Virus record (IMG/VR): IMGVR_UViG_3300008255_000105
Reading direction: 5' to 3' (one strand)
Length of the DNA: 46,908 nucleotides
DNA from: a virus
Lineage: Duplodnaviria; Heunggongvirae; Uroviricota; Caudoviricetes
The notes beneath the pieces are model-generated. The model saw only the letters and a list, made by a program, of their open reading frames with translations, ran no database searches and was not told the DNA's origin. The position numbers and the translations under genes were made by a program. Shown in pieces: positions 3,562-40,169 of the stretch (the stretch's first letter is position 1; every line of letters starts with the position of its first letter).

Positions 3562-3575
3562 TTATCTATCCAAAG

Positions 3576-3605
3576 TTATGCCCCGAAAAGATTTTCGGGG
3601 CATAA
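3576..3605. terminator. Hairpin terminator
   Basis: TTATGCCCCGAAAA-GA-TTTTCGGGGCATAA near-perfect inverted repeat between genes. Confidence 0.7.
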
Positions 3606-3629
3606 CTCTTTTTACAGGTCACTTCTTTT

Positions 3630-8312: not shown

Positions 8313-8435
8313 TTTGCGAGAATTATCGAAAACTGGGTTTTTGGTTTCTACTGGAATCGAACCAGTAACATATTGATTAATAGTCAATTGATCTACCTTT
8401 GATCTAAGAAGTAACAGTTTTCTCGACTACGCAAA
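8313..8435 (-). ncRNA. Scaffold-family element copy A, enclosing a tRNA-like body
   Basis: TTTGCG/CGCAAA terminal stem, GAAAACTG/CAGTTTTC inner stem, GTAGTC-N11-TACTTC. Confidence 0.6.
8342..8413 (-). tRNA. Degenerate tRNA-Asn(ATT)-like element
   Basis: Intact D arm, anticodon arm ATTGA-CT ATT AA-TCAAT and T arm ACTGG-TTCGATT-CCAGT; outer 3 acceptor pairs mismatched (TACTTCT/AGAAACC). Confidence 0.6.
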
Positions 8436-8451
8436 ATCTTTTCAATAAATT

Positions 8452-8718
8452 CTATTTATCTTCTTTGGGGAAAATTCCCTTCATCATTTTTTTAAAATTT
8501 TCAATACAAGAGCCATCTACCATAAAATCATACGCATAATTTTGAGTGTAATCACATTTTGAACAAATCCATCCATCTTTTGTTGGAATTAATTTTTCTC
8601 TGCAAACACAAGTAAATGGATGCATTGGTTCAAATTCTTGAAACTCTTTTAAATTTTGGACCTGTTCATCAGTCCAAGGAGCAAAAACATCTTTCATTGT
8701 TTTAATTCCAGGTTCCAC
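8452..8718 (-). CDS. Small putative Zn-binding protein (alternative ATG at 8697)
   Basis: HPFTCVC...WICSKC Cys/His pattern. Confidence 0.65.
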   Translation of the reverse strand: MEPGIKTMKDVFAPWTDEQVQNLKEFQEFEPMHPFTCVCREKLIPTKDGWICSKCDYTQNYAYDFMVDGSCIENFKKMMKGIFPKEDK

Positions 8719-8825
8719 AAACTTAGTAAAACTTACCGAGTTTATATCAGGTCTCCCAAGGGATTCCCTTGCCCGAGAAAACCTAGTAACTCGGGACTTG
8801 GCAACGCCGAAGACGGCGTTGCCAA
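8715..8825 (-). ncRNA. Candidate structured RNA: three tandem hairpins plus 20-nt anti-motif tail
   Basis: 12-bp stem 8798-8825, CCCGAG/CTCGGG 8772-8795, CAAGGG/CCCTTG 8757-8771. Confidence 0.5.
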
Positions 8826-8900
8826 CTTAAAACCTCTTCATCTGTCATTAGAAAATCTTTTCCAATTACCATATTGATTACCTTTTAATTCAATTTCGAT

Positions 8901-9308
8901 CTAATGCCATTTATATGGGCGTTCAGCCGGCCCAATGATCTTGTCAACAGGGAAATATCTTTCCCGTCCCCATCCTTCTGCACCATAAACGATAACATTT
9001 TGAACACCAATAGTTTGAATTCTAAAAATATCACCTTCAACTTCTTTATCTATGTCGGTGTCGGAAATGTCAATCTTAACAAAATCATCACAAGAATAAA
9101 TAGTCTCACCTTGTTTGCATCCATCTAGAAAAACAATTTGGATGCAATCATCACAAATGTTCCCTTTAAAATCTACCATGTCAAAACGACTACCAAAACC
9201 AGGTCTAAAATTGAATTGATGGTTCTCTGGAATTTCCACCTGATGTTCTTTCCCACAGATCGTACATTTAAGGGTTTCCATTTCTTTCTCTTTCTCTTTC
9301 TCTTTCAA
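8901..9308 (-). CDS. Hypothetical CxxC-containing protein (alternative ATG about 9281)
   Basis: CTIC ... ICDDC motifs. Confidence 0.65.
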   Translation of the reverse strand: MKEKEKEKEMETLKCTICGKEHQVEIPENHQFNFRPGFGSRFDMVDFKGNICDDCIQIVFLDGCKQGETIYSCDDFVKIDISDTDIDKEVEGDIFRIQTIGVQNVIVYGAEGWGRERYFPVDKIIGPAERPYKWH

Positions 9309-9380
9309 TGGGAAGAGCAGGAATTGAACCTGCGACGCCCGCTGCTTCGAAGCGGCGCTCTACCCCTGAGCTATCTCCCC
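9309..9380 (-). tRNA. tRNA-Phe(GAA) with atypical anticodon loop (C33, G37)
   Basis: GGGGAGA/TCTTCCC acceptor, CCGCT-TC GAA GC-AGCGG, canonical spacing. Confidence 0.8.
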
Positions 9381-9466
9381 AAAACAACTAACCAAACTTC
9401 AACTTCTTCTTCAATTATAGAGTTTAAATTTTTCCATTATTCTAATGAAAAATTCTAATCAGTGAC

Positions 9467-9514
9467 AAGATTTACTAAATTCGTGGCTATCGTTCATGGC
9501 CACCGTCCTGTTCC
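9467..9514 (-). ncRNA. Small RNA copy 1 (paralogue of 11401-11447)
   Basis: Begins 7 nt after an extended -10; GTGG/CCAC hairpin and conserved 3' module. Confidence 0.55.
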
Positions 9515-9520
9515 ATCCCT

Positions 9521-9531
9521 ATTATACCACA
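9521..9531 (-). promoter_or_regulatory. Extended -10 promoter
   Basis: TGTGGTATAAT. Confidence 0.7.
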
Positions 9532-9931
9532 CAGCGACAGATTCTTAATTGGAATTTTTGGAAGAAAAAATTTTATTTTTTAAATCAATTATACATAAAC
9601 CATCTGTTGCTTTTGCTCTTTCTCTTAAAGAAATAGGTCATGGTTCTGCTTGCCTTGTTTCAAAGAAATAAATATAATCATTAAAACTAACAACCAAATC
9701 GGGATGTTTAACATGTTTCCCTCTCTCCCTCAAGGTTCTTTTATACAAATTTTTATTCATCTGTTCAAAAATCTAATATTTCATCCTAAAAAAAGATAAA
9801 AACTTTTTACATGTTCTCCTTTTGCTTCTTTGAAAATCTTGGTAAATCTTCTTTTTCTATTTTCATTTAATTTTTCCCAACTTAAATGTTGGGCTTAATT
9901 TTCTGACAAATTTTCCACCATATTTAATCAT

Positions 9932-10234
9932 TCAAGTTTTTGTTTCTTCTTCTGCTTCAACTGTTTTACCTTCATGCCCCTCGACATATCCATATTGATC
10001 TAAACAGGCTATGCCGACTGCAACAACTTGAACAATTTCTGAAAGCATATCTTCTGAAACATCTTTTGTTGGTCCTTGGAACCAAGCCTCTTTTGCTTCT
10101 TGAAGTTCTCTTTCCATGATTGTAACCCATTCGAGAATTGAATGGGGATTTTCTTCAACACCACCCCATTTTTCGTCTTGAAAATCTCTTTCACGATTCA
10201 CAGCACCGTAGATATCATCTCTTTTGAATCTCAT
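9932..10234 (-). CDS. MazG-like NTP pyrophosphohydrolase-fold protein
   Basis: EWVTIMERELQEAKEAW ... SEIVQVVAVGIACL pattern (ExxE ... EhhQhhAV). Confidence 0.6.
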   Translation of the reverse strand: MRFKRDDIYGAVNRERDFQDEKWGGVEENPHSILEWVTIMERELQEAKEAWFQGPTKDVSEDMLSEIVQVVAVGIACLDQYGYVEGHEGKTVEAEEETKT

Positions 10235-10254
10235 GTTTAACTCCTTTTGTTAGC

Positions 10255-10650
10255 TCAATCTTCACAATCTTCGCAATTTTCGTCTTCTCCACAACAACAT
10301 GAAAATTGATTTTTACAAGCTTCATCAACCCAATAGGGAACCCATTTCATCCCTAAAGCATTTGGTAATTCATTTTTCACAAATTCAACAGATTCTGACC
10401 ACTTAATGTTTTCAACAATAACTTTTCTCCCAGCCAAGAGAGCCATAAAATAACCCAAATCATCTTCATCTTCTGTCCAAGCTGGTTGTGTTTGGTCAAA
10501 TTCATTAACTGATGTAAAATAAGAATCCTCTATATCATTTTCACTTAAATAATTGAGATACTCTTGTTCTTCCAAACCTTTTTCTTCTGCTTCTTTGGAG
10601 AATCTCTGTGATTCATCCAAAAACCGTTGAACCTTCTCTTCTTTCGTCAT
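10255..10650 (-). CDS. Hypothetical acidic protein with Cys-rich tail
   Basis: 131-aa ORF, CCCGEDENCEDC C-terminus. Confidence 0.65.
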   Translation of the reverse strand: MTKEEKVQRFLDESQRFSKEAEEKGLEEQEYLNYLSENDIEDSYFTSVNEFDQTQPAWTEDEDDLGYFMALLAGRKVIVENIKWSESVEFVKNELPNALGMKWVPYWVDEACKNQFSCCCGEDENCEDCED

Positions 10651-11012
10651 GGCGCTTTCCCTTCTTCTAGGATTTTTTCCAGTTCAAAATCAAACTCTTC
10701 ACCTGTCATCTTTTTAATTTCCAATTCTAAATCTTGAATTCCATCTTTGTGTTCTATTAAAAATCTTATATTATCTGAAACTTTATTTATTTTTTCTAAA
10801 TTCTTTTCTTTGTTTTTTTCATTAAAATAAGAACCTAAAAGAAAAAAACAACCAACAGGGCCTAAAATCACAACACCTAAACTTGCGAGGAAGATAGTAA
10901 AAAAGACAGAATCATAAAACACATTTTTAACAATGAATGATGAAATATCTTTAAAAACAATTCCAAGAACAAAGGCCCCTGTCAAAAACCAAGTGATATC
11001 AGTTGGATGCAT
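10647..11012 (-). CDS. Hypothetical membrane protein
   Basis: Two hydrophobic helices; ATGA overlap with the next gene. Confidence 0.7.
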   Translation of the reverse strand: MHPTDITWFLTGAFVLGIVFKDISSFIVKNVFYDSVFFTIFLASLGVVILGPVGCFFLLGSYFNEKNKEKNLEKINKVSDNIRFLIEHKDGIQDLELEIKKMTGEEFDFELEKILEEGKAP

Positions 11013-11106
11013 TGTGTTCTCCTAATCTTTCCCTTCTTTTAGAATCTTTTCCAACACAATTCTTGGCCAATCTTTAAAGACAAGCTCGCTATTCAATCTC
11101 CATTTT

Positions 11107-11334
11107 TCATCTTCTGGAATGTGTGAATTCTCTCTCACAAATTGAAGCCGGTCGAATTTCCTCAAATGTGAACGGGGATGTTATAGCATTCTCGACTTTC
11201 TGGAGCCATTCATTAAATTGTTCAAGATCGGGAACTTCATCGAGAGTGGAATCAAAAAAGATTTCTTCTCCGTCCTCAGTGATGAAGGATTCCTTGGTTA
11301 TTTTCACGACTGTCATTTTATTTTCTCCGTTCAT
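11107..11334 (-). CDS. Hypothetical protein
   Basis: 75-aa ORF; internal ATG with GGAG RBS. Confidence 0.55.
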   Translation of the reverse strand: MNGENKMTVVKITKESFITEDGEEIFFDSTLDEVPDLEQFNEWLQKVENAITSPFTFEEIRPASICEREFTHSRR

Positions 11335-11400
11335 ATAGTATACTTCTAGTATTATATGAAAAACTACTTCAATTCGGCAATATTTTTACCGATATTTTTC

Positions 11401-11447
11401 AAGATTTACTAAGTTCGTGGCTATCGCTTGTAACCACCGGAACAGGA
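11401..11447 (-). ncRNA. Small RNA copy 2
   Basis: AAGATTTACTAAGTTCGTGGCTATCG is 25/26 identical to 9467-9492; same GTGG/CCAC hairpin. Confidence 0.55.
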
Positions 11448-11574
11448 GCAACCCAGACTTGGAATAAAAAAATGTCTAATCTTCAGTTGAAGGAGTCAAG
11501 GGAATCAAAATAGATTCTTTAAATTTATCTATCTTTTTCTTTGTTATAATCCCATTCTCTCATTTTGACTCCAA

Positions 11575-11940
11575 TTAATCCCACCAAAATCTAACCACAG
11601 TTTCAGGGACTTCATTGCCTTGGTCAGAAGATACTAGATCAACCCAATCAAATTCATCTGGTCTAGAATGTTTAATTAATTCCATTGCGTTAATAAACAA
11701 AGAGGCATTTTCAACCGATACACTTGGATCATTATTTATTTCAAAAACAAAAGTGTACTTGTCATTAACCCAACCACCGATTTTTGAGTCTTCATCAATC
11801 AAATCTACAGGAATAATAAATTTTTCTAAATCTAATTCTTCTAAAAGACGAATAAATTCTTTTCTTCCAAGAAAAGAATTAAATGGAACTCGTTCTAATT
11901 CAATTTTAGCATCAATAGTTTTTGCATTTGCTGGATTCAT
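11575..11940 (-). CDS. Hypothetical protein
   Basis: 121-aa ORF with RBS. Confidence 0.7.
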   Translation of the reverse strand: MNPANAKTIDAKIELERVPFNSFLGRKEFIRLLEELDLEKFIIPVDLIDEDSKIGGWVNDKYTFVFEINNDPSVSVENASLFINAMELIKHSRPDEFDWVDLVSSDQGNEVPETVVRFWWD

Positions 11941-11994: not shown

Positions 11995-12555
11995 CTATTG
12001 AAGAATGAACTCTAATTCGCTGACCAACCAATGAAGAATCATTAAATGAAGTTCCTGGGTTATTGCCGTCCTTTGGCTTGGAACTTTTATAAAATGATCA
12101 TCTTCTTCTTTACATTTCTTTGATGTTAAGACCCAATAACTAATTCCTAATTTTTTACATTCTTTAATTGCATTTTGAATATTTTTAGAAGTTCCGCTTG
12201 TTGTAAAAAAGATACAAACACCACAAACTTTTGAAAAGCTTTTGATGTTTCTTGAAATTGAATTTTCGTAACCATAATCATTAGATATTGCTGAAAGCTC
12301 TGCTAAATTTGAATTTAGGTTGATTGCAGGATAGCCATCACGATCCTCTTCAAATCTACCTGTCAATTCTGCAATAAAATGTTCTGATTGTGCTGCTGAT
12401 CCACCATTCCCAGCAGAACAGATAATTTGATTGTTCTCATAAGCACTCAAGCAATCGGATAACATCTTTCCCAATTGTTTGTTTATTTCTTCGTCGTTAA
12501 GAAGTTGAAGAGAATAAGAACAAATAGCCCTAACTGATATCTCTAATTTTTTCAC
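11995..12555 (-). CDS. gmhA: Phosphoheptose (sedoheptulose-7-P) isomerase, SIS domain
   Basis: SAGNGGSAAQSEHFIAELTGRF, ISNDYGYE, TTSGTSKNI, TQELHLMILH; GTG 12555 overlaps the upstream TGA. Confidence 0.9.
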   Translation of the reverse strand: MKKLEISVRAICSYSLQLLNDEEINKQLGKMLSDCLSAYENNQIICSAGNGGSAAQSEHFIAELTGRFEEDRDGYPAINLNSNLAELSAISNDYGYENSISRNIKSFSKVCGVCIFFTTSGTSKNIQNAIKECKKLGISYWVLTSKKCKEEDDHFIKVPSQRTAITQELHLMILHWLVSELEFILQ

Positions 12556-12863
12556 GAAATCTCCTCTTCGTTGCAAAATTCACAAATCCAAACAAAGATA
12601 TCTTTGTTTGGATTCAGGAACCAAATGATTTTTTCTAGAAAATTCAAACCCTTGGGTTTAATTGGATTTTTCTTTTTCAGATATGTTTTAGAGTCACCAC
12701 AATGAACACACTTTTTAGAACCAGAGGGGTGTGAAACGATTAAAACCTCACGGCCAACACAAGGTCCACCGATGAATTCCTTTTCTATAAGGCTAAAATA
12801 ATCCAAAGTGGGGAACATATCTACGATGTTCCCCACTAAACACTTTGTATTTCCTAAATACAT
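12552..12863 (-). CDS. Hypothetical Zn-ribbon protein
   Basis: CVHC ... CEFC. Confidence 0.65.
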   Translation of the reverse strand: MYLGNTKCLVGNIVDMFPTLDYFSLIEKEFIGGPCVGREVLIVSHPSGSKKCVHCGDSKTYLKKKNPIKPKGLNFLEKIIWFLNPNKDIFVWICEFCNEEEIS

Positions 12864-13098: not shown

Positions 13099-13154
13099 GT
13101 GAGAATAATCAACATGAGTGATTTGTCAAGAAGTAACTCCCATTTTGACTTCAC
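13099..13154 (-). ncRNA. Scaffold-family copy B
   Basis: GTGA/TCAC ends, GAGT/ACTC inner stem, GAAGTC-N11-TACTTC. Confidence 0.65.
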
Positions 13155-13171
13155 AAAAAATCTCAATTCTA

Positions 13172-13247
13172 TGCCCCTGGCAGGAATCGAACCTGCGGCC
13201 CCGACGCTTAAAAGGCGTGTGCTCTAATCCAACTGAGCTACAGAGGC
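13172..13247 (-). tRNA. tRNA-Lys(TTT)
   Basis: GCCTCTG/CAGGGGC acceptor, loop CT TTT AA. Confidence 0.9.
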
Positions 13248-13266
13248 GAGTGTTTTCTCAATTCTA

Positions 13267-13341
13267 TGCCCCCGGCAGGAATCGAACCTGCGACCTAACG
13301 CTTAAGAGGCGTGTGCTCTAATCCAACTGAGCTACAAGGGC
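13267..13341 (-). tRNA. tRNA-Lys(CTT)
   Basis: GCCCTTG/CGGGGGC acceptor, loop CT CTT AA; near-duplicate of the neighbour. Confidence 0.9.
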
Positions 13342-13353
13342 GAAATTAATTCC

Positions 13354-13426
13354 TGCGAGAATAATCACAAACAGAGTTTTTGTTTTTTCACCTAAAGAAA
13401 GAAGTATCTGTTCACTTGACTTCGCA
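13354..13426 (-). ncRNA. Scaffold-family copy C
   Basis: TGCGA/TCGCA ends, AACAGA/TCTGTT inner stem, GAAGTC-N11-TACTTC. Confidence 0.65.
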
Positions 13427-13448
13427 AAAACATTTCTAAAATTGATAA

Positions 13449-13530
13449 TTCTGAGAATAAGCAACAGGAGGGGGAGCGAATCATTTATTGGTTTGAAATA
13501 TCAGAAGTATCTCCTATTTTGACTTCAGAA
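13449..13530 (-). ncRNA. Scaffold-family copy D
   Basis: TTCTGA/TCAGAA ends, AGGAG/CTCCT inner stem, GAAGTC-N11-TACTTC. Confidence 0.65.
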
Positions 13531-13531
13531 A

Positions 13532-17518: not shown

Positions 17519-17589
17519 TTTATTTTTCCCCAACCTTGTAGGAATATTATTGATTAAAGATGAATATTCCTACAAGGTTGGTTTTAAAA

Positions 17590-21927: not shown

Positions 21928-23187
21928 TTAGACAATACTTGTAACAATCCCGTTTGTGACAGTAACCGTCTTGCCATCGACTGTTGTAAATGTTCCAGAA
22001 ACGCCGGCTGTTGCCCCAACTGAAAAATTATCTGCCGAGAATCCGTCATCTGTTTTGAGGGTGTTTGAGGCAGAACGGTATAGGTTGGTATCATAACCAC
22101 CAGCACCATCTCCGAATTCAATTCCAGATGAACCATAATACACTTTTAATTTACCAAGTCGATCAATTCTGATTTTCTCAACTGCATCTGTTGCAGATGC
22201 AGTTGAGAAAATCAAATCAATCCAGTTAGCGCCATCGACACCTGATTGAATAGCATGAATACTTGCTTTGCGATTACTTGCCGCTGATGGTTGAAAAAGA
22301 ATGCCAGTAGCTGTACCTGCATTGGAACTCGAATTTATCAAGTTTATTAGATTCGTTTGTACCCCGACACTGGTATTGGTAAGAGTCGCCAACGAGGCGC
22401 TTAGTGTTGAAGCAGAAAATCCGTCATCTGTTTTAAGTACATTTGCGGCACTACGATAAAGATTAGTATCACCACTTATTCCAAATGTGATTCCACCAGC
22501 AGCAGTGGTTGGATTAGTTGCGTTACAAAGCCACATTGTATATGTAGAAGAGGCACTGATTGCAAAACCATAGTTGCTTGACCCTTTGGTTTGTGCATCA
22601 ATCATCATCCCATATTGTGCAGTTATTTCCGAACCAGCACCTTTAGTTTCAATGTCCAGAATCCTCAAACCAATTAAACTTTCTGACGTAAAAACGGAAG
22701 CCGCAGTAGAAGGAGGCTTAACAATTATACCATAACTGTCAGAAGTTGCTGTTGCTGGAATGGTATAAACATTGTAAGCACCACACAACGATGTGCCAGT
22801 TGAAGGATGAATCCCACCGATATTAAAGAGATAAGAACTATTTATAGTTGTGTTGATAGCAGATTGTAGCCCAGCAATAAACCCATCATCTGTTTTTAGT
22901 GTGTTTTCAGCAGAACGATAAAGATTGACATCTGCACCGAAAAGAATTCCACCAACTTCTGTCCCTGATGTTGAGGAAAGATTCAAAGCAGAGGCAGAAC
23001 CAGCAGCAAGGATTAATCCATTAGTTGTGTCAAAAGTTAGATTCGCAGAATCAACAAATAGTCCACCTGTTGAAACATATGGAATTCTTGTAGAAGTTAA
23101 GTTAGAAACTGTTAAATCACCAATGATTTCAACACCATCTGATCTTTCTATAATTTTTGATCTTTTAATTGTTGGATATGTAGGCAT
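21928..23187 (-). CDS. Tail-fibre/receptor-binding-like structural protein
   Basis: Gly/Ser/Thr-rich beta composition, three D(V/T)NLYRSAxNxLKTDDGF repeats, terminal GKTVTVTNGIVTSIV. Confidence 0.65.
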   Translation of the reverse strand: MPTYPTIKRSKIIERSDGVEIIGDLTVSNLTSTRIPYVSTGGLFVDSANLTFDTTNGLILAAGSASALNLSSTSGTEVGGILFGADVNLYRSAENTLKTDDGFIAGLQSAINTTINSSYLFNIGGIHPSTGTSLCGAYNVYTIPATATSDSYGIIVKPPSTAASVFTSESLIGLRILDIETKGAGSEITAQYGMMIDAQTKGSSNYGFAISASSTYTMWLCNATNPTTAAGGITFGISGDTNLYRSAANVLKTDDGFSASTLSASLATLTNTSVGVQTNLINLINSSSNAGTATGILFQPSAASNRKASIHAIQSGVDGANWIDLIFSTASATDAVEKIRIDRLGKLKVYYGSSGIEFGDGAGGYDTNLYRSASNTLKTDDGFSADNFSVGATAGVSGTFTTVDGKTVTVTNGIVTSIV

Positions 23188-27275: not shown

Positions 27276-29174
27276 TCATTCCCCTGTAAAATTCCCCTCG
27301 GGTATATTTAAGCCGGTTTTGCACCTTTTGTTAAATTCTTCTTCTGAAAGTTGTTTGCCATTGATCCACCATTCTTTTGATCCGTCGGCAAATTCAATTG
27401 CTGGCCCGTCTTCTCGATGGAGTTGACCGTTTTGCCACCATTCTTTTGTCCCATTTGCCCATTCAATAGCAGGCCCATCTTCTCGATGAAGTTTGCCATT
27501 TTGGAGCCATTGTTTTGTTCCATTTGCAGATTCAATTGCTGGGCCATCAAGGCGATGGCGTTTGCCATTTTGGAACCATTCTTTTGAACCATCGGCTCGT
27601 TCTTTTGCTGGGCCATCAAGGCGGTGAAGCTGTCCATTTTGCCACCAATGTTTTGAACCATTGGCAAATTCAACGGCTGGGCCATCAAGGCGATGAAGCT
27701 GATCATTGACCCACCATTCTTTTGTCCCATTTGCCCATTCAATAGCAGGCCCATCTTCTCGATGAAGTTTGCCATTTTGGAACCATTCTTTTGTCCCATC
27801 GGCTCGTTCTTTTGCTGGGCCATCTTCTCGATGAAGCAAGCCGTTCAATCGCCATTCTTTTGTCCCATCTTCAAAGGTTTTAAGAGTTGATTTTTCTTTT
27901 GGTCCTTTTGATGGTAATTGTTCGGTTCTTTTTTTAAATTCTTCTTCTGAAAGTTGTTTCCCATGGATAAACCAATATTTATTTCCGCTGATCACTTCAA
28001 TTGCTGACCCATCTTCTCGGTGAAGTTGGCCATTTTGGAACCATTCTTTTAAGCCGTCGGCTTTTTCAACGGCTGGGCCATCAAGGCGATGAAGTTTGCC
28101 ATTTTGTAACCATTCTTTTGAGCCGTCGGCCATTTCAATTGCTGGGCCATCAAGGCGATGAAGCTGGCCATTTTGCCACCATTCTTTTAAGCCATTGTCT
28201 CGTTCAATTGCTGGTCCATCAAGGCGATGAAGTTTGCCATTTTGGAACCATTCTTTTGAGCCGTCGGCCATTTCAATTGCTGGGCCATCAAGGCGATGAA
28301 GTTGACCGTTTTGCCACCAAAATTTTGCCCCGTCGGCAAATTCAACGGCTGGCCCGTCTTCTCGATGGAGTTGACCGTTTTGCCACCATTCTTTTGTCCC
28401 ATCGGCTCGTTCTCTTGCTGGTCCATCAAGGCGATGAAGTTTGCCATTTTGGAACCATTCTTTTGACCCATCGGCAAATTCAATTGCTGGCCCATCTTCT
28501 CGATGAGGTTGACCATTGATGAACCATTTTTTGAACCATTTTTTTGGCCCATTAGGAATTTGAACTATAGTAAAACGTTCTCTTTCATTTGTCTCTTCGT
28601 GGCCGTGGCTGTGCTCTTCGGGGCCGTGGCCGTGGCTGTGCTCTTCGGGGCCGTGGCCGTGGCTGTGCTCTTCGGGGCCGTGGCCGTGGCTGTGCTCTTC
28701 GGGGCTGTGTTCTTCGGGGCCGTGGCTGTGTTCTTCGGGGCCGTGGCCGTGGCTGTGCTCTTCGGGGTTGTGACCGTGCTCTTCTTGGCCGTGCTTGTGT
28801 GCGGCGTCGTGCAATTCCTCCCAAGCTTCTTCAATCTCGTTTATTTTCATCACAGTAAATTCATGTGAAAGGATAAGATAATCACCGAAATCTTCATCAT
28901 AAACGACGACTGCTACTTCTTGTGGGGGACCGAAATCAATAATTTGTTGTGCCAAAACAAGAGAAGCACTGAGGTGTTCTTTTTCATCTTCACAATTCAC
29001 GGGAACAATTGATTGCATCATACCGTTTGCCAATGGTCCATTAGCAGACAAAAGATTCTTTTTGCCGAAAAACCATCGGTATCTGATCGCTACTTTTAGT
29101 TTTTGGTTTGTTTCAAATCCTGGTGTTCCACCATTAACCAAATTGCGAATATCCTCTGGATTGAAAACGCACAT
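27276..29174 (-). CDS. Multidomain protein: unknown N-domain, His-rich repeats, 15 HRxDGPA repeats in two blocks (8+7)
   Basis: ATG 29174 with GAGGAG RBS; repeats counted in the translation. Confidence 0.85.
   Translation of the reverse strand: MCVFNPEDIRNLVNGGTPGFETNQKLKVAIRYRWFFGKKNLLSANGPLANGMMQSIVPVNCEDEKEHLSASLVLAQQIIDFGPPQEVAVVVYDEDFGDYLILSHEFTVMKINEIEEAWEELHDAAHKHGQEEHGHNPEEHSHGHGPEEHSHGPEEHSPEEHSHGHGPEEHSHGHGPEEHSHGHGPEEHSHGHEETNERERFTIVQIPNGPKKWFKKWFINGQPHREDGPAIEFADGSKEWFQNGKLHRLDGPARERADGTKEWWQNGQLHREDGPAVEFADGAKFWWQNGQLHRLDGPAIEMADGSKEWFQNGKLHRLDGPAIERDNGLKEWWQNGQLHRLDGPAIEMADGSKEWLQNGKLHRLDGPAVEKADGLKEWFQNGQLHREDGSAIEVISGNKYWFIHGKQLSEEEFKKRTEQLPSKGPKEKSTLKTFEDGTKEWRLNGLLHREDGPAKERADGTKEWFQNGKLHREDGPAIEWANGTKEWWVNDQLHRLDGPAVEFANGSKHWWQNGQLHRLDGPAKERADGSKEWFQNGKRHRLDGPAIESANGTKQWLQNGKLHREDGPAIEWANGTKEWWQNGQLHREDGPAIEFADGSKEWWINGKQLSEEEFNKRCKTGLNIPEGNFTGE
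28595..28800 (-). repeat. 27-bp tandem repeat encoding (HGPEEHSHG)n
   Basis: GGCCGTGGCTGTGCTCTTCGG units on the + strand. Confidence 0.9.
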
Positions 29175-39848: not shown

Positions 39849-40169
39849 ATGAGTGAATTTATTATGATTTATGGAATTAAAGTCCCCTTCGAAAAAGCTT
39901 GTGATATTTATCATAATTGGTCTCATCGTAAAAGTAAAATTAGAAAAATAAGTGATTTTAATGGAAGAATGACAAATGCAAACGGATTGGTTTTTATGAA
40001 CTTTGATAATGAAAATGTTTTAATAGGAATTTTCGCACCAAAAGATCCATATAAAATCCCATTATTAACAAAAGAAGAACTAACAAAAAGGCTTATGGAG
40101 TTTGATCACTCCATAAGCCTTTTTGTTGTCAATTATTTTAATTTAAATCAAAATATAGAATGTGTGTAA
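39849..40169 (+). CDS. Hypothetical protein
   Basis: GAGGTG RBS, 106 aa. Confidence 0.6.
   Translation: MSEFIMIYGIKVPFEKACDIYHNWSHRKSKIRKISDFNGRMTNANGLVFMNFDNENVLIGIFAPKDPYKIPLLTKEELTKRLMEFDHSISLFVVNYFNLNQNIECV

Follow-up and report, generated by a model that had tools for sequence, protein, structure and literature searches.

A 20-nt motif confined to one stretch of a large phage genome and its possible role in same-strand RNA pairing

The stretch of DNA analysed here, referred to as the window, comprises 46,908 nucleotides (nt) of a large uncultivated phage (Caudoviricetes; record IMGVR_UViG_3300008255_000105). It is AT-rich, with a GC content of about 33%. Within 2.7 kb of the window, a 20-nt motif, CCACRAAYTTAGTAAAWCTT (hereafter M), occurs three times, with two copies in one direction and one reversed. 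The credible genes around the copies are all encoded on the minus strand. Read on this strand, the reversed copy constitutes an anti-motif, M', and marks the 5' edge of the leader of the small gene orf81, the putative target of the element.

9467-9486, minus strand: M copy 1, CCACGAATTTAGTAAATCTT, in the leader upstream of tRNA-Phe; 0 mismatches to the 20-mer
11401-11420, minus strand: M copy 2, CCACGAACTTAGTAAATCTT; 0 mismatches to the 20-mer
8715-8734, plus strand: M copy 3, CCACAAACTTAGTAAAACTT; 2 mismatches to the 20-mer; its minus-strand reading is M', the 5' edge of the orf81 leader
8452-8697, minus strand: orf81, putative target, a phage zinc-ribbon family protein

An initial annotation of the sequence had described the 20-mer at the same two sites and, inverted and with 18/20 identities, at the third, and our matches agree with it. 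Dinucleotide shuffling abolished the signal entirely, with no match of the 20-mer in 100 of 100 shuffles. Scanning the window with up to six mismatches revealed no further credible copy of M. The flanking genome of the same phage (about 39 kb, retrieved via the end genes) extended the scanned sequence to about 86 kb, and at up to five mismatches this flanking part contained no further copy either. The genome search for more copies suggested by the initial annotation thus returned none in this sequence, and within at least 86 kb the element is limited to a single stretch of 2.7 kb. Between the copies, M is kept at 17–19 of 20 positions. Conservation drops in the neighbouring hairpin arm and loop, where 6 of about 19 positions vary, and beyond the shared unit the flanks cannot be aligned. 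In the reversed copy, the strongly conserved part coincides with the 20-nt pairing region.

On the minus strand, copy 2 and the target form 18 Watson-Crick pairs, one G-U pair and one U-U mismatch, and copy 1 forms 17 Watson-Crick pairs, two G-U pairs and one U-U mismatch. Both duplexes contain 19 of 20 possible pairs, the count given initially. RNAduplex yields energies of -22.7 and -20.4 kcal/mol for copy 2 and copy 1 respectively, compared with -18.4 and -12.2 kcal/mol for the plus-strand equivalents. When the cost of opening the local hairpins is included, the change in free energy upon cofolding is -8.6 kcal/mol for the RNA that would carry copy 1 (RNA 1) and -15.1 to -19.7 kcal/mol for the RNA that would carry copy 2 (RNA 2); shuffled targets give -5.2 ± 2.9 kcal/mol. 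These energies, like the folds described below, are model values that speak to feasibility only. The target overlaps the GTG at 8718 and ends 17 nt before the ATG at 8697, in keeping with its earlier description as a site covering this GTG and the leader of ATG 8697. The start at 8697 is the choice of the gene callers and fits 20 homologues of orf81.

The sequences adjoining the three copies contain further shared parts, among them a short module, E.

9487-9514, minus strand: module E and hairpin 5' arm and loop of copy 1; E is GGAACAGGA at 9514-9506, arm and loop lie at 9504-9487, and the 3' arm is the CCAC of M
11421-11473, minus strand: upstream part of copy 2; hairpin 5' arm and loop at 11438-11421, E' (TCCTGTTCC) at 11447-11439, and a further block at about 11473-11455
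8695-8716, plus strand: flank of copy 3, the complement of the orf81 start codon through E' (TCCAGGTTCC, 8707-8716)

Copies 1 and 2 have in common a unit of about 40 nt, made up of a 5–7-bp hairpin whose 3' arm is the CCAC of M, the remainder of M and a G. In both copies the CCAC has an unpaired probability close to 0, which bears out the earlier statement that pairing requires the CCAC strand of each RNA's own hairpin. The central 12 nt of M in copy 1 are far more accessible, with unpaired probabilities of 0.7–0.96 in a 102-nt RNA. The hairpins of both copies are followed by GAAY and not by RCCA, and since no U-tract follows them they do not constitute convincing terminators. The initial description of copies 1 and 2 as discrete small RNAs is not confirmed: their similarity extends over only about 40 nt, no convincing terminator ends them and they match no Rfam family.

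Three occurrences of module E (GGAACAGGA or GGAACCTGGA) were found in the window, each adjoining a copy of M; the additional 39 kb contain none. E' abuts M in copy 3 and is split from it by a 19-nt hairpin insert in copy 2, and E is flipped in copy 1. From the placement of E', copy 3 resembles copy 2 minus the 19-nt hairpin. The E and E' tails of RNA 1 and RNA 2 are exactly complementary over 9 nt. Moreover, the 20 nt to the left of copy 3 resemble a block located 35 nt upstream of the M of copy 2 (score 12, reached by 1% of 4684 background windows; p ~0.01). This block, at about 11473-11455, is complementary to the part of the orf81 leader that holds the Shine-Dalgarno (SD) sequence and the AUG, an extra complementarity found for copy 2 only. 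The similarity between the two flanks suggests that RNA 2 could cover the whole 39-nt orf81 leader.

Promoter-like sites are predicted close to all three copies.

9521-9548, minus strand: predicted strong sigma-70-type promoter TTAAGA-16-TGgTATAAT, 28 nt upstream of copy 1; predicted start at about 9516-9513, at module E
9439-9468, minus strand: promoter-like site TTGTCA-18-TAGAAT ahead of tRNA-Phe; its -35 overlaps the last 2 nt of M copy 1
8741-8749, minus strand: extended -10-like site TGaTATAAA, proposed from the sequence and absent from the promoter scan
11351-11380, minus strand: promoter-like site TTGCCG-18-TATAAT, 20 nt downstream of M copy 2 and ahead of orf69/75 (11107-11334)

Extended -10 sites of the TGGTATAAT type precede several other genes of the phage; the copy 1 promoter is of the TGTGGTATAAT type. 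The form TG(G/A)TATAAT recurs at 9529, 16076, 18314 (plus strand), 21623, 22732 and 26860, in several cases without a recognisable -35. Judged from the site at 8741-8749, the 5' end of the orf81 mRNA would fall on A8734, the first base of M'. The stretch between the M and M' arms has no predicted intrinsic terminator.

We modelled a single read-through RNA of 837 nt, extending from the predicted start at 9516 to 8680. Its predicted minimum free energy (MFE) structure contains a 20-bp long-range helix between M and M' with one mismatch, and 14 of its pairs have a probability of at least 0.96. In this model, the helix closes a 732-nt domain with three features.

9308-9381, minus strand: tRNA-Phe (GAA), between M copy 1 and M'; called by ARAGORN and Rfam
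8901-9281, minus strand: orf126, an orphan zinc-ribbon protein, between M copy 1 and M'
8749-8835, minus strand: GC-rich, cloverleaf-like four-way RNA

We tentatively interpret M and M' as a functional RNA-RNA pairing module on the gene strand that acts in antisense or processing control similar to that of P4 CI and P1 C4, a reading that is quite possible if still short of probable. From the arrangement of the locus we infer promoters, co-transcription, pairing in vivo and its outcome. M would reside in two leader RNAs, one running from the extended -10 promoter into tRNA-Phe and the other located ahead of orf69/75, with a short hairpin partly masking M in both leaders. M' would form the first 20 nt of the orf81 leader. 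By a cis route, the read-through transcript would fold back on itself so that the 20-bp helix closes the 732-nt domain; by a trans route, the upstream leaders would pair with the orf81 leader. By either route, a stretch of RNA would become double-stranded 17 nt before the start codon of orf81, and in the case of copy 2 the added pairing could reach the SD/AUG region. The double-stranded segment might be cut by a nuclease specific for double-stranded RNA (e.g. RNase III), block translation or change mRNA stability. The expression of orf81 would thereby be coupled to the transcription of the upstream units. Of the three interpretations offered in the initial annotation, trans-antisense control and a processing stem bracketing tRNA-Phe are both viable and are favoured in silico by the common strand of the copies and the neighbouring genes, the extended -10 promoter ahead of copy 1, the predicted +1 of the orf81 leader at the start of M', the cofolding energies and the dominance of the helix in the read-through fold; the third, a tracrRNA-like repeat/anti-repeat pair, lacks support, as detailed below.

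Three copies within 2.7 kb and none elsewhere fit a dedicated local circuit rather than a general family of promoters or terminators. The strict local restriction, the conservation of M above that of loop and flanks, and the co-occurrence of E argue for a function over neutral relics. RNA pairing and an orientation-independent DNA site both fit these three properties. We favour pairing because the elements lie on the transcribed strand, M' is placed at the edge of a leader, and the similarity to copy 2 spans that leader, and also because M has no dyad symmetry of note and takes up inconsistent positions relative to the promoters.

A number of observations weigh against pairing as the function of M. 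As any inverted DNA repeat gives same-strand complementarity, the pairing energies fail to separate the readings. The initial annotation had taken the G-U wobbles on the minus strand as favouring RNA-RNA pairing. This argument is weak, since the asymmetry rests on two transitions (p = 0.25) and, when two hairpin transitions are added, three of four are compatible with the minus strand (p ~0.3), so that it does not reach significance. The plus strand actually tolerates the mismatch in the hairpin of copy 1 better than the minus strand does. The first four nt of M are locked in the hairpin and the M of copy 2 is mostly paired locally. No clear terminators delimit small RNAs at copies 1 and 2, and the conserved final T is missing from the predicted -10 hexamer of orf81. 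Homologues of orf81 in other phages (about 50% identity) are located in non-syntenic operons without leader or motif; the same holds for homologues of the 100-aa open reading frame (ORF), whose operons are likewise non-syntenic and have neither leader nor motif. Comparison between genomes adds no support: a blastn search with the 3.6-kb region against phage records gave no match, and protein-anchored scans of IMG/VR using orf126 and the aminoacyl-tRNA synthetase gene found no relative. Identical sequence of this phage is present in many metagenome assemblies, with contigs of up to about 130 kb (among the sources are JGI 3300025018, 3300025150 and 3300004210 and ENA ERZ272933xx/934xx), and in 10 contigs from other samples the motif regions are identical. 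Because no related phage was found by any route and these 10 contigs do not vary, there is no covariation for M and M'.

Other explanations account for parts of the same evidence. The copies could be relics of local duplication and inversion, at most a PeSL-like cassette of stem-loop and promoter, their complementarity being a by-product; we place this on the unlikely side, short of far-fetched. Copies 1 and 2 would then each represent a stem-loop, an AT-rich tract and the start of a -35 at a gene-cassette boundary, and copy 3 a partial inverted copy. Local duplications are frequent in the region, with twin tRNA-Lys genes, repeated scaffold sequences and adjacent ORFs whose C-termini are paralogous, and the small ORFs nearby are orphans. 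In copies 1 and 2, M runs directly into the TTG of a -35-like hexamer and promoter-like sites follow; the succession of stem-loop, AT-rich tract and sigma-70 promoter is the layout of PeSLs (PMC2839356, PMC4122927). A copy 3 that equals copy 2 minus the hairpin is also what is expected of diverged copies of one segment. However, PeSLs are numerous and dispersed, whereas only three copies of M exist in about 86 kb, and M is conserved far above its flanks, unlike neutral relics. The distance from M to a usable promoter changes from 0 nt in copy 1 to 20 nt in copy 2, copy 3 has neither a stem-loop nor a promoter in its own orientation, and the hairpin, lacking a U-tract, makes no convincing terminator. 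A DNA site appears somewhat less probable still. M, together with E, would be bound in either orientation by a protein of the phage or its host, such as a regulator, an initiator or a factor for recombination or packaging, and act on nearby promoters. The location of the three copies, all intergenic and adjoining promoter-like sites, is consistent with this, and a two-domain binder could tolerate both the variable orientation and the flip of E between copies 1 and 2. A candidate binder might be seen in orf126, located between copies 3 and 1, which has a weak zinc-ribbon match to a transcription-regulator domain (Zn_ribbon_Brz, E = 0.0044, below the cutoff), but orf126 is an orphan and no DNA-binding protein has been identified. 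The dyad symmetry of M does not extend beyond TTAgTAA, its positions relative to the predicted starts (about +1 to +20, -35 to -54 and -57 to -76) are inconsistent, and the spacings, 0.7 and 1.9 kb, do not resemble those of iterons or cos/pac clusters.

Two more restricted proposals concern subsets of the copies. The hairpin and M could form a cis-acting leader element, such as a nut/put-like antitermination or stability signal, with copy 3 incidental. The conserved 40-nt combination of hairpin and linear motif is indeed promoter-proximal in two transcription units, but the reversed copy and the similarity of E and the flanks would be left unexplained, and neither boxA/boxB similarity nor an Rfam match was found; we consider this improbable. 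Copies 3 and 1 face each other across 732 bp containing one tRNA, one ORF and one structured RNA, and might be regarded as terminal inverted repeats of a 772-bp mobile or invertible segment carrying tRNA-Phe and orf126. This is highly improbable. There is no target-site duplication at 8714/9487 and no transposase or invertase inside, the right-hand repeat belongs to the 40-nt unit that also occurs at copy 2, outside the segment, and all six assemblies spanning both repeats (6/6) have the same orientation.

Several further identities of the motif were rejected. M is not a promoter, as neither a -10 nor a -35 is found within it on either strand. One reading frame is open through the three copies, but every difference between them is non-synonymous, and a start codon with an SD sequence is present in copy 1 only, which disfavours a coding explanation. 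No tRNA-like structure or known RNA family corresponds to the M units (ARAGORN; Rfam at the gathering threshold and at E up to 5 returned only tRNAs and noise). An AATTCCA box upstream of the copies has 33 matches and is too common to be meaningful. The tracrRNA-like arrangement was abandoned because there is neither a CRISPR-like array nor a Cas-sized gene in the window; the motif has only three copies. Scanned for the exact pattern, IMG/VR, JGI metagenomes and GTDB genomes yielded 1, 13 and 8 single matches, respectively, in unrelated and mostly coding contexts, i.e. single chance matches in all three public collections. The largest ORFs in the window, of 659 and 561 aa, have no Cas domains, and the neighbours within 5 kb are small orphans, in line with the earlier remark that no Cas gene is visible in the window (Pfam on 20 proteins).

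RNase III acts on long-range stems that flank rRNA genes and on local sites in phage T7 early RNA. As in the rRNA stems, a helix of about 20 bp would be built here from distant parts of one precursor; it would surround tRNA-Phe as a stable RNA and define the ends of the messages next to it. The 20-bp, near-perfect duplex of distant segments in the predicted MFE structure of the 837-nt RNA conforms to this type. Unlike in the rRNA stems, the helix would take in an ORF as well, and the second copy of M further upstream could act as a competing partner.

The overall logic of the pairing module is reminiscent of phage P4 immunity, where, as summarised in PMC4825925, the targets of the CI RNA, seqA and seqC, are part of the transcript that carries CI itself. 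In both cases, antisense and targets lie on the same strand of one transcribed region, three elements are involved of which one is complementary to two, and the antisense is located in an untranslated leader. Whereas P4 has one antisense for two targets, with the elements within a few hundred nt and premature termination as the outcome, the phage studied here has two antisense copies facing one target. The sequences show no similarity to P4, and there is no RNase P-type hairpin with RCCA. The P1/P7 C4 RNA and the P4 CI RNA are processed leader RNAs (PMC5499578). C4 resembles the present case in that a leader-derived RNA acts on a downstream message of the same strand through short complementary blocks near a translation start. 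However, C4 is a substrate of RNase P (PMC5499578) and carries two short pairing blocks in a defined fold, whereas here a single continuous 20-nt block is partly sequestered in a hairpin. Antisense and target on one strand with at least 8 contiguous complementary nt, as in P4 CI and C4, are present (19/20 pairs); a hairpin plus RCCA for release by RNase P is not, GAAY standing in its place. The C4 family of Rfam gave no match at the gathering threshold or at E up to 5. The element is a member of none of the P4 CI, C4 and RNase III-stem families, since it has no match to the C4 model, no RNase P hairpin with RCCA, and two antisense copies facing one target.

When comparing the copies with the PeSLs of T4-like phages, the similarity lies in an intergenic stem-loop, an AT-rich tract and a sigma-70-type promoter among orphan genes and tRNAs (PMC2839356, PMC4122927). 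PeSLs occur many times per genome, co-oriented with transcription, and their stem-loop is a terminator, in contrast to the three copies found here in about 86 kb, of which one is reversed and without a stem-loop, and none is followed by a U-tract. Only copy 1 has the layout of a single unit, with TTGTCA-18-TAGAAT abutting M; the promoter of copy 2 lies 20 nt further on, and copy 3 has neither part.

Should the pairing prove real, a neighbouring message would be controlled, or have its 5' end set, by leader RNAs from two units, one of a tRNA and one of small genes. Such a circuit would follow the logic of P4 CI and P1 C4 with another architecture, in which two antisense copies, masked each by its own hairpin, face one target, with an unusual tRNA-like RNA alongside. 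The locus would then represent a new variant of same-strand antisense or processing control and a compact, testable case of long-range RNA pairing around a phage tRNA gene; otherwise M is an ordinary repeat. To our knowledge, post-transcriptional control in huge phages is almost unexplored.

A more elaborate version of the pairing module, which we consider quite unlikely as a whole, is a network of three RNA nodes. RNA 1 (E-hairpin-M) and RNA 2 (E'-hairpin-M) would both target the 5' end of orf81, RNA 1 being freed when RNase P matures tRNA-Phe. RNA 1 and RNA 2 could also pair through their E and E' tails, whereby one might titrate the other in a sponge-like manner, and a loop of the cloverleaf-like RNA could serve as a kissing site for the core of M. 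This loop, the second hairpin loop at 8790-8779 (beginning UUACUAGG), holds, when read by eye from the sequence, an 8-nt partial M'-like segment that is complementary to the M core. The cloverleaf-like RNA itself folds alone at -46.3 kcal/mol (z = -5.5). It receives no tRNA call and has a 12-bp stem without a U-tract on either strand.

The AlphaFold2 model of orf81 has a pLDDT of 88, and no match to it was found in the PDB. PHROGs and Pfam assign no function to orf81, and the Atlas contains it in unnamed viral clusters only. For orf126, no real homologue was found among 1.84 billion representatives. The window has nine tRNA matches, eight from ARAGORN and one partial tRNA-like match from Rfam at 8346-8410. 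It also encodes a class I aminoacyl-tRNA synthetase, a RuvB-like ATPase, an HNH endonuclease and many orphan genes. Two adjacent small ORFs on the minus strand, 10647-11012 and 11022-11165, both end in LEKIL(E/K)EGK and share 27 nt at 89% identity, a similarity that points to local duplication.

Long bipartite stems (scaffolds) surround tRNA-like or other cargo at 8315-8435, 11480-11580, 13129-13531 and about 9590-9665. One such stem immediately precedes M copy 2, and a degenerate one is located upstream of copy 1. On the minus strand at 9625-9714, a hydrophobic ORF of 29 aa (beginning MLNIPIWLLVLMIIFISLK) follows a strong SD sequence (GGGAGAGAGGG). Inside this ORF is a plus-strand promoter-like site, TTGCCT-17-TATAAT (9650-9678), and about 200 nt further on a terminator-like hairpin (9876-9893, plus strand). 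Together, the ORF and the antisense layout resemble a type I toxin-antitoxin system, in which a small membrane peptide is accompanied by a cis-antisense RNA over its start.

At 12585-12614, in or at the junction of the ORFs 12552-12863 and 11995-12576, lies a perfect palindrome of 30 nt with GATATC at its centre. Further palindromes of 34–52 nt lie at 17530-17581, 22170-22214, 40082-40127 and 3574-3607; that at 17530-17581 separates divergent genes, and that at 40082-40127 looks like a bidirectional terminator. Tandem repeats of 69 nt (23 aa) occur within two ORFs at 1310-1812 and 27366-28534, the larger protein having MORN-like repeats and DUF6745. About 5.5–6 kb before the start of the window (L029 16276-17037), a gene with the Anti-Pycsar Apyc1/metallo-beta-lactamase fold, as assigned by precomputed Pfam matches, adjoins a HisRS-like gene.

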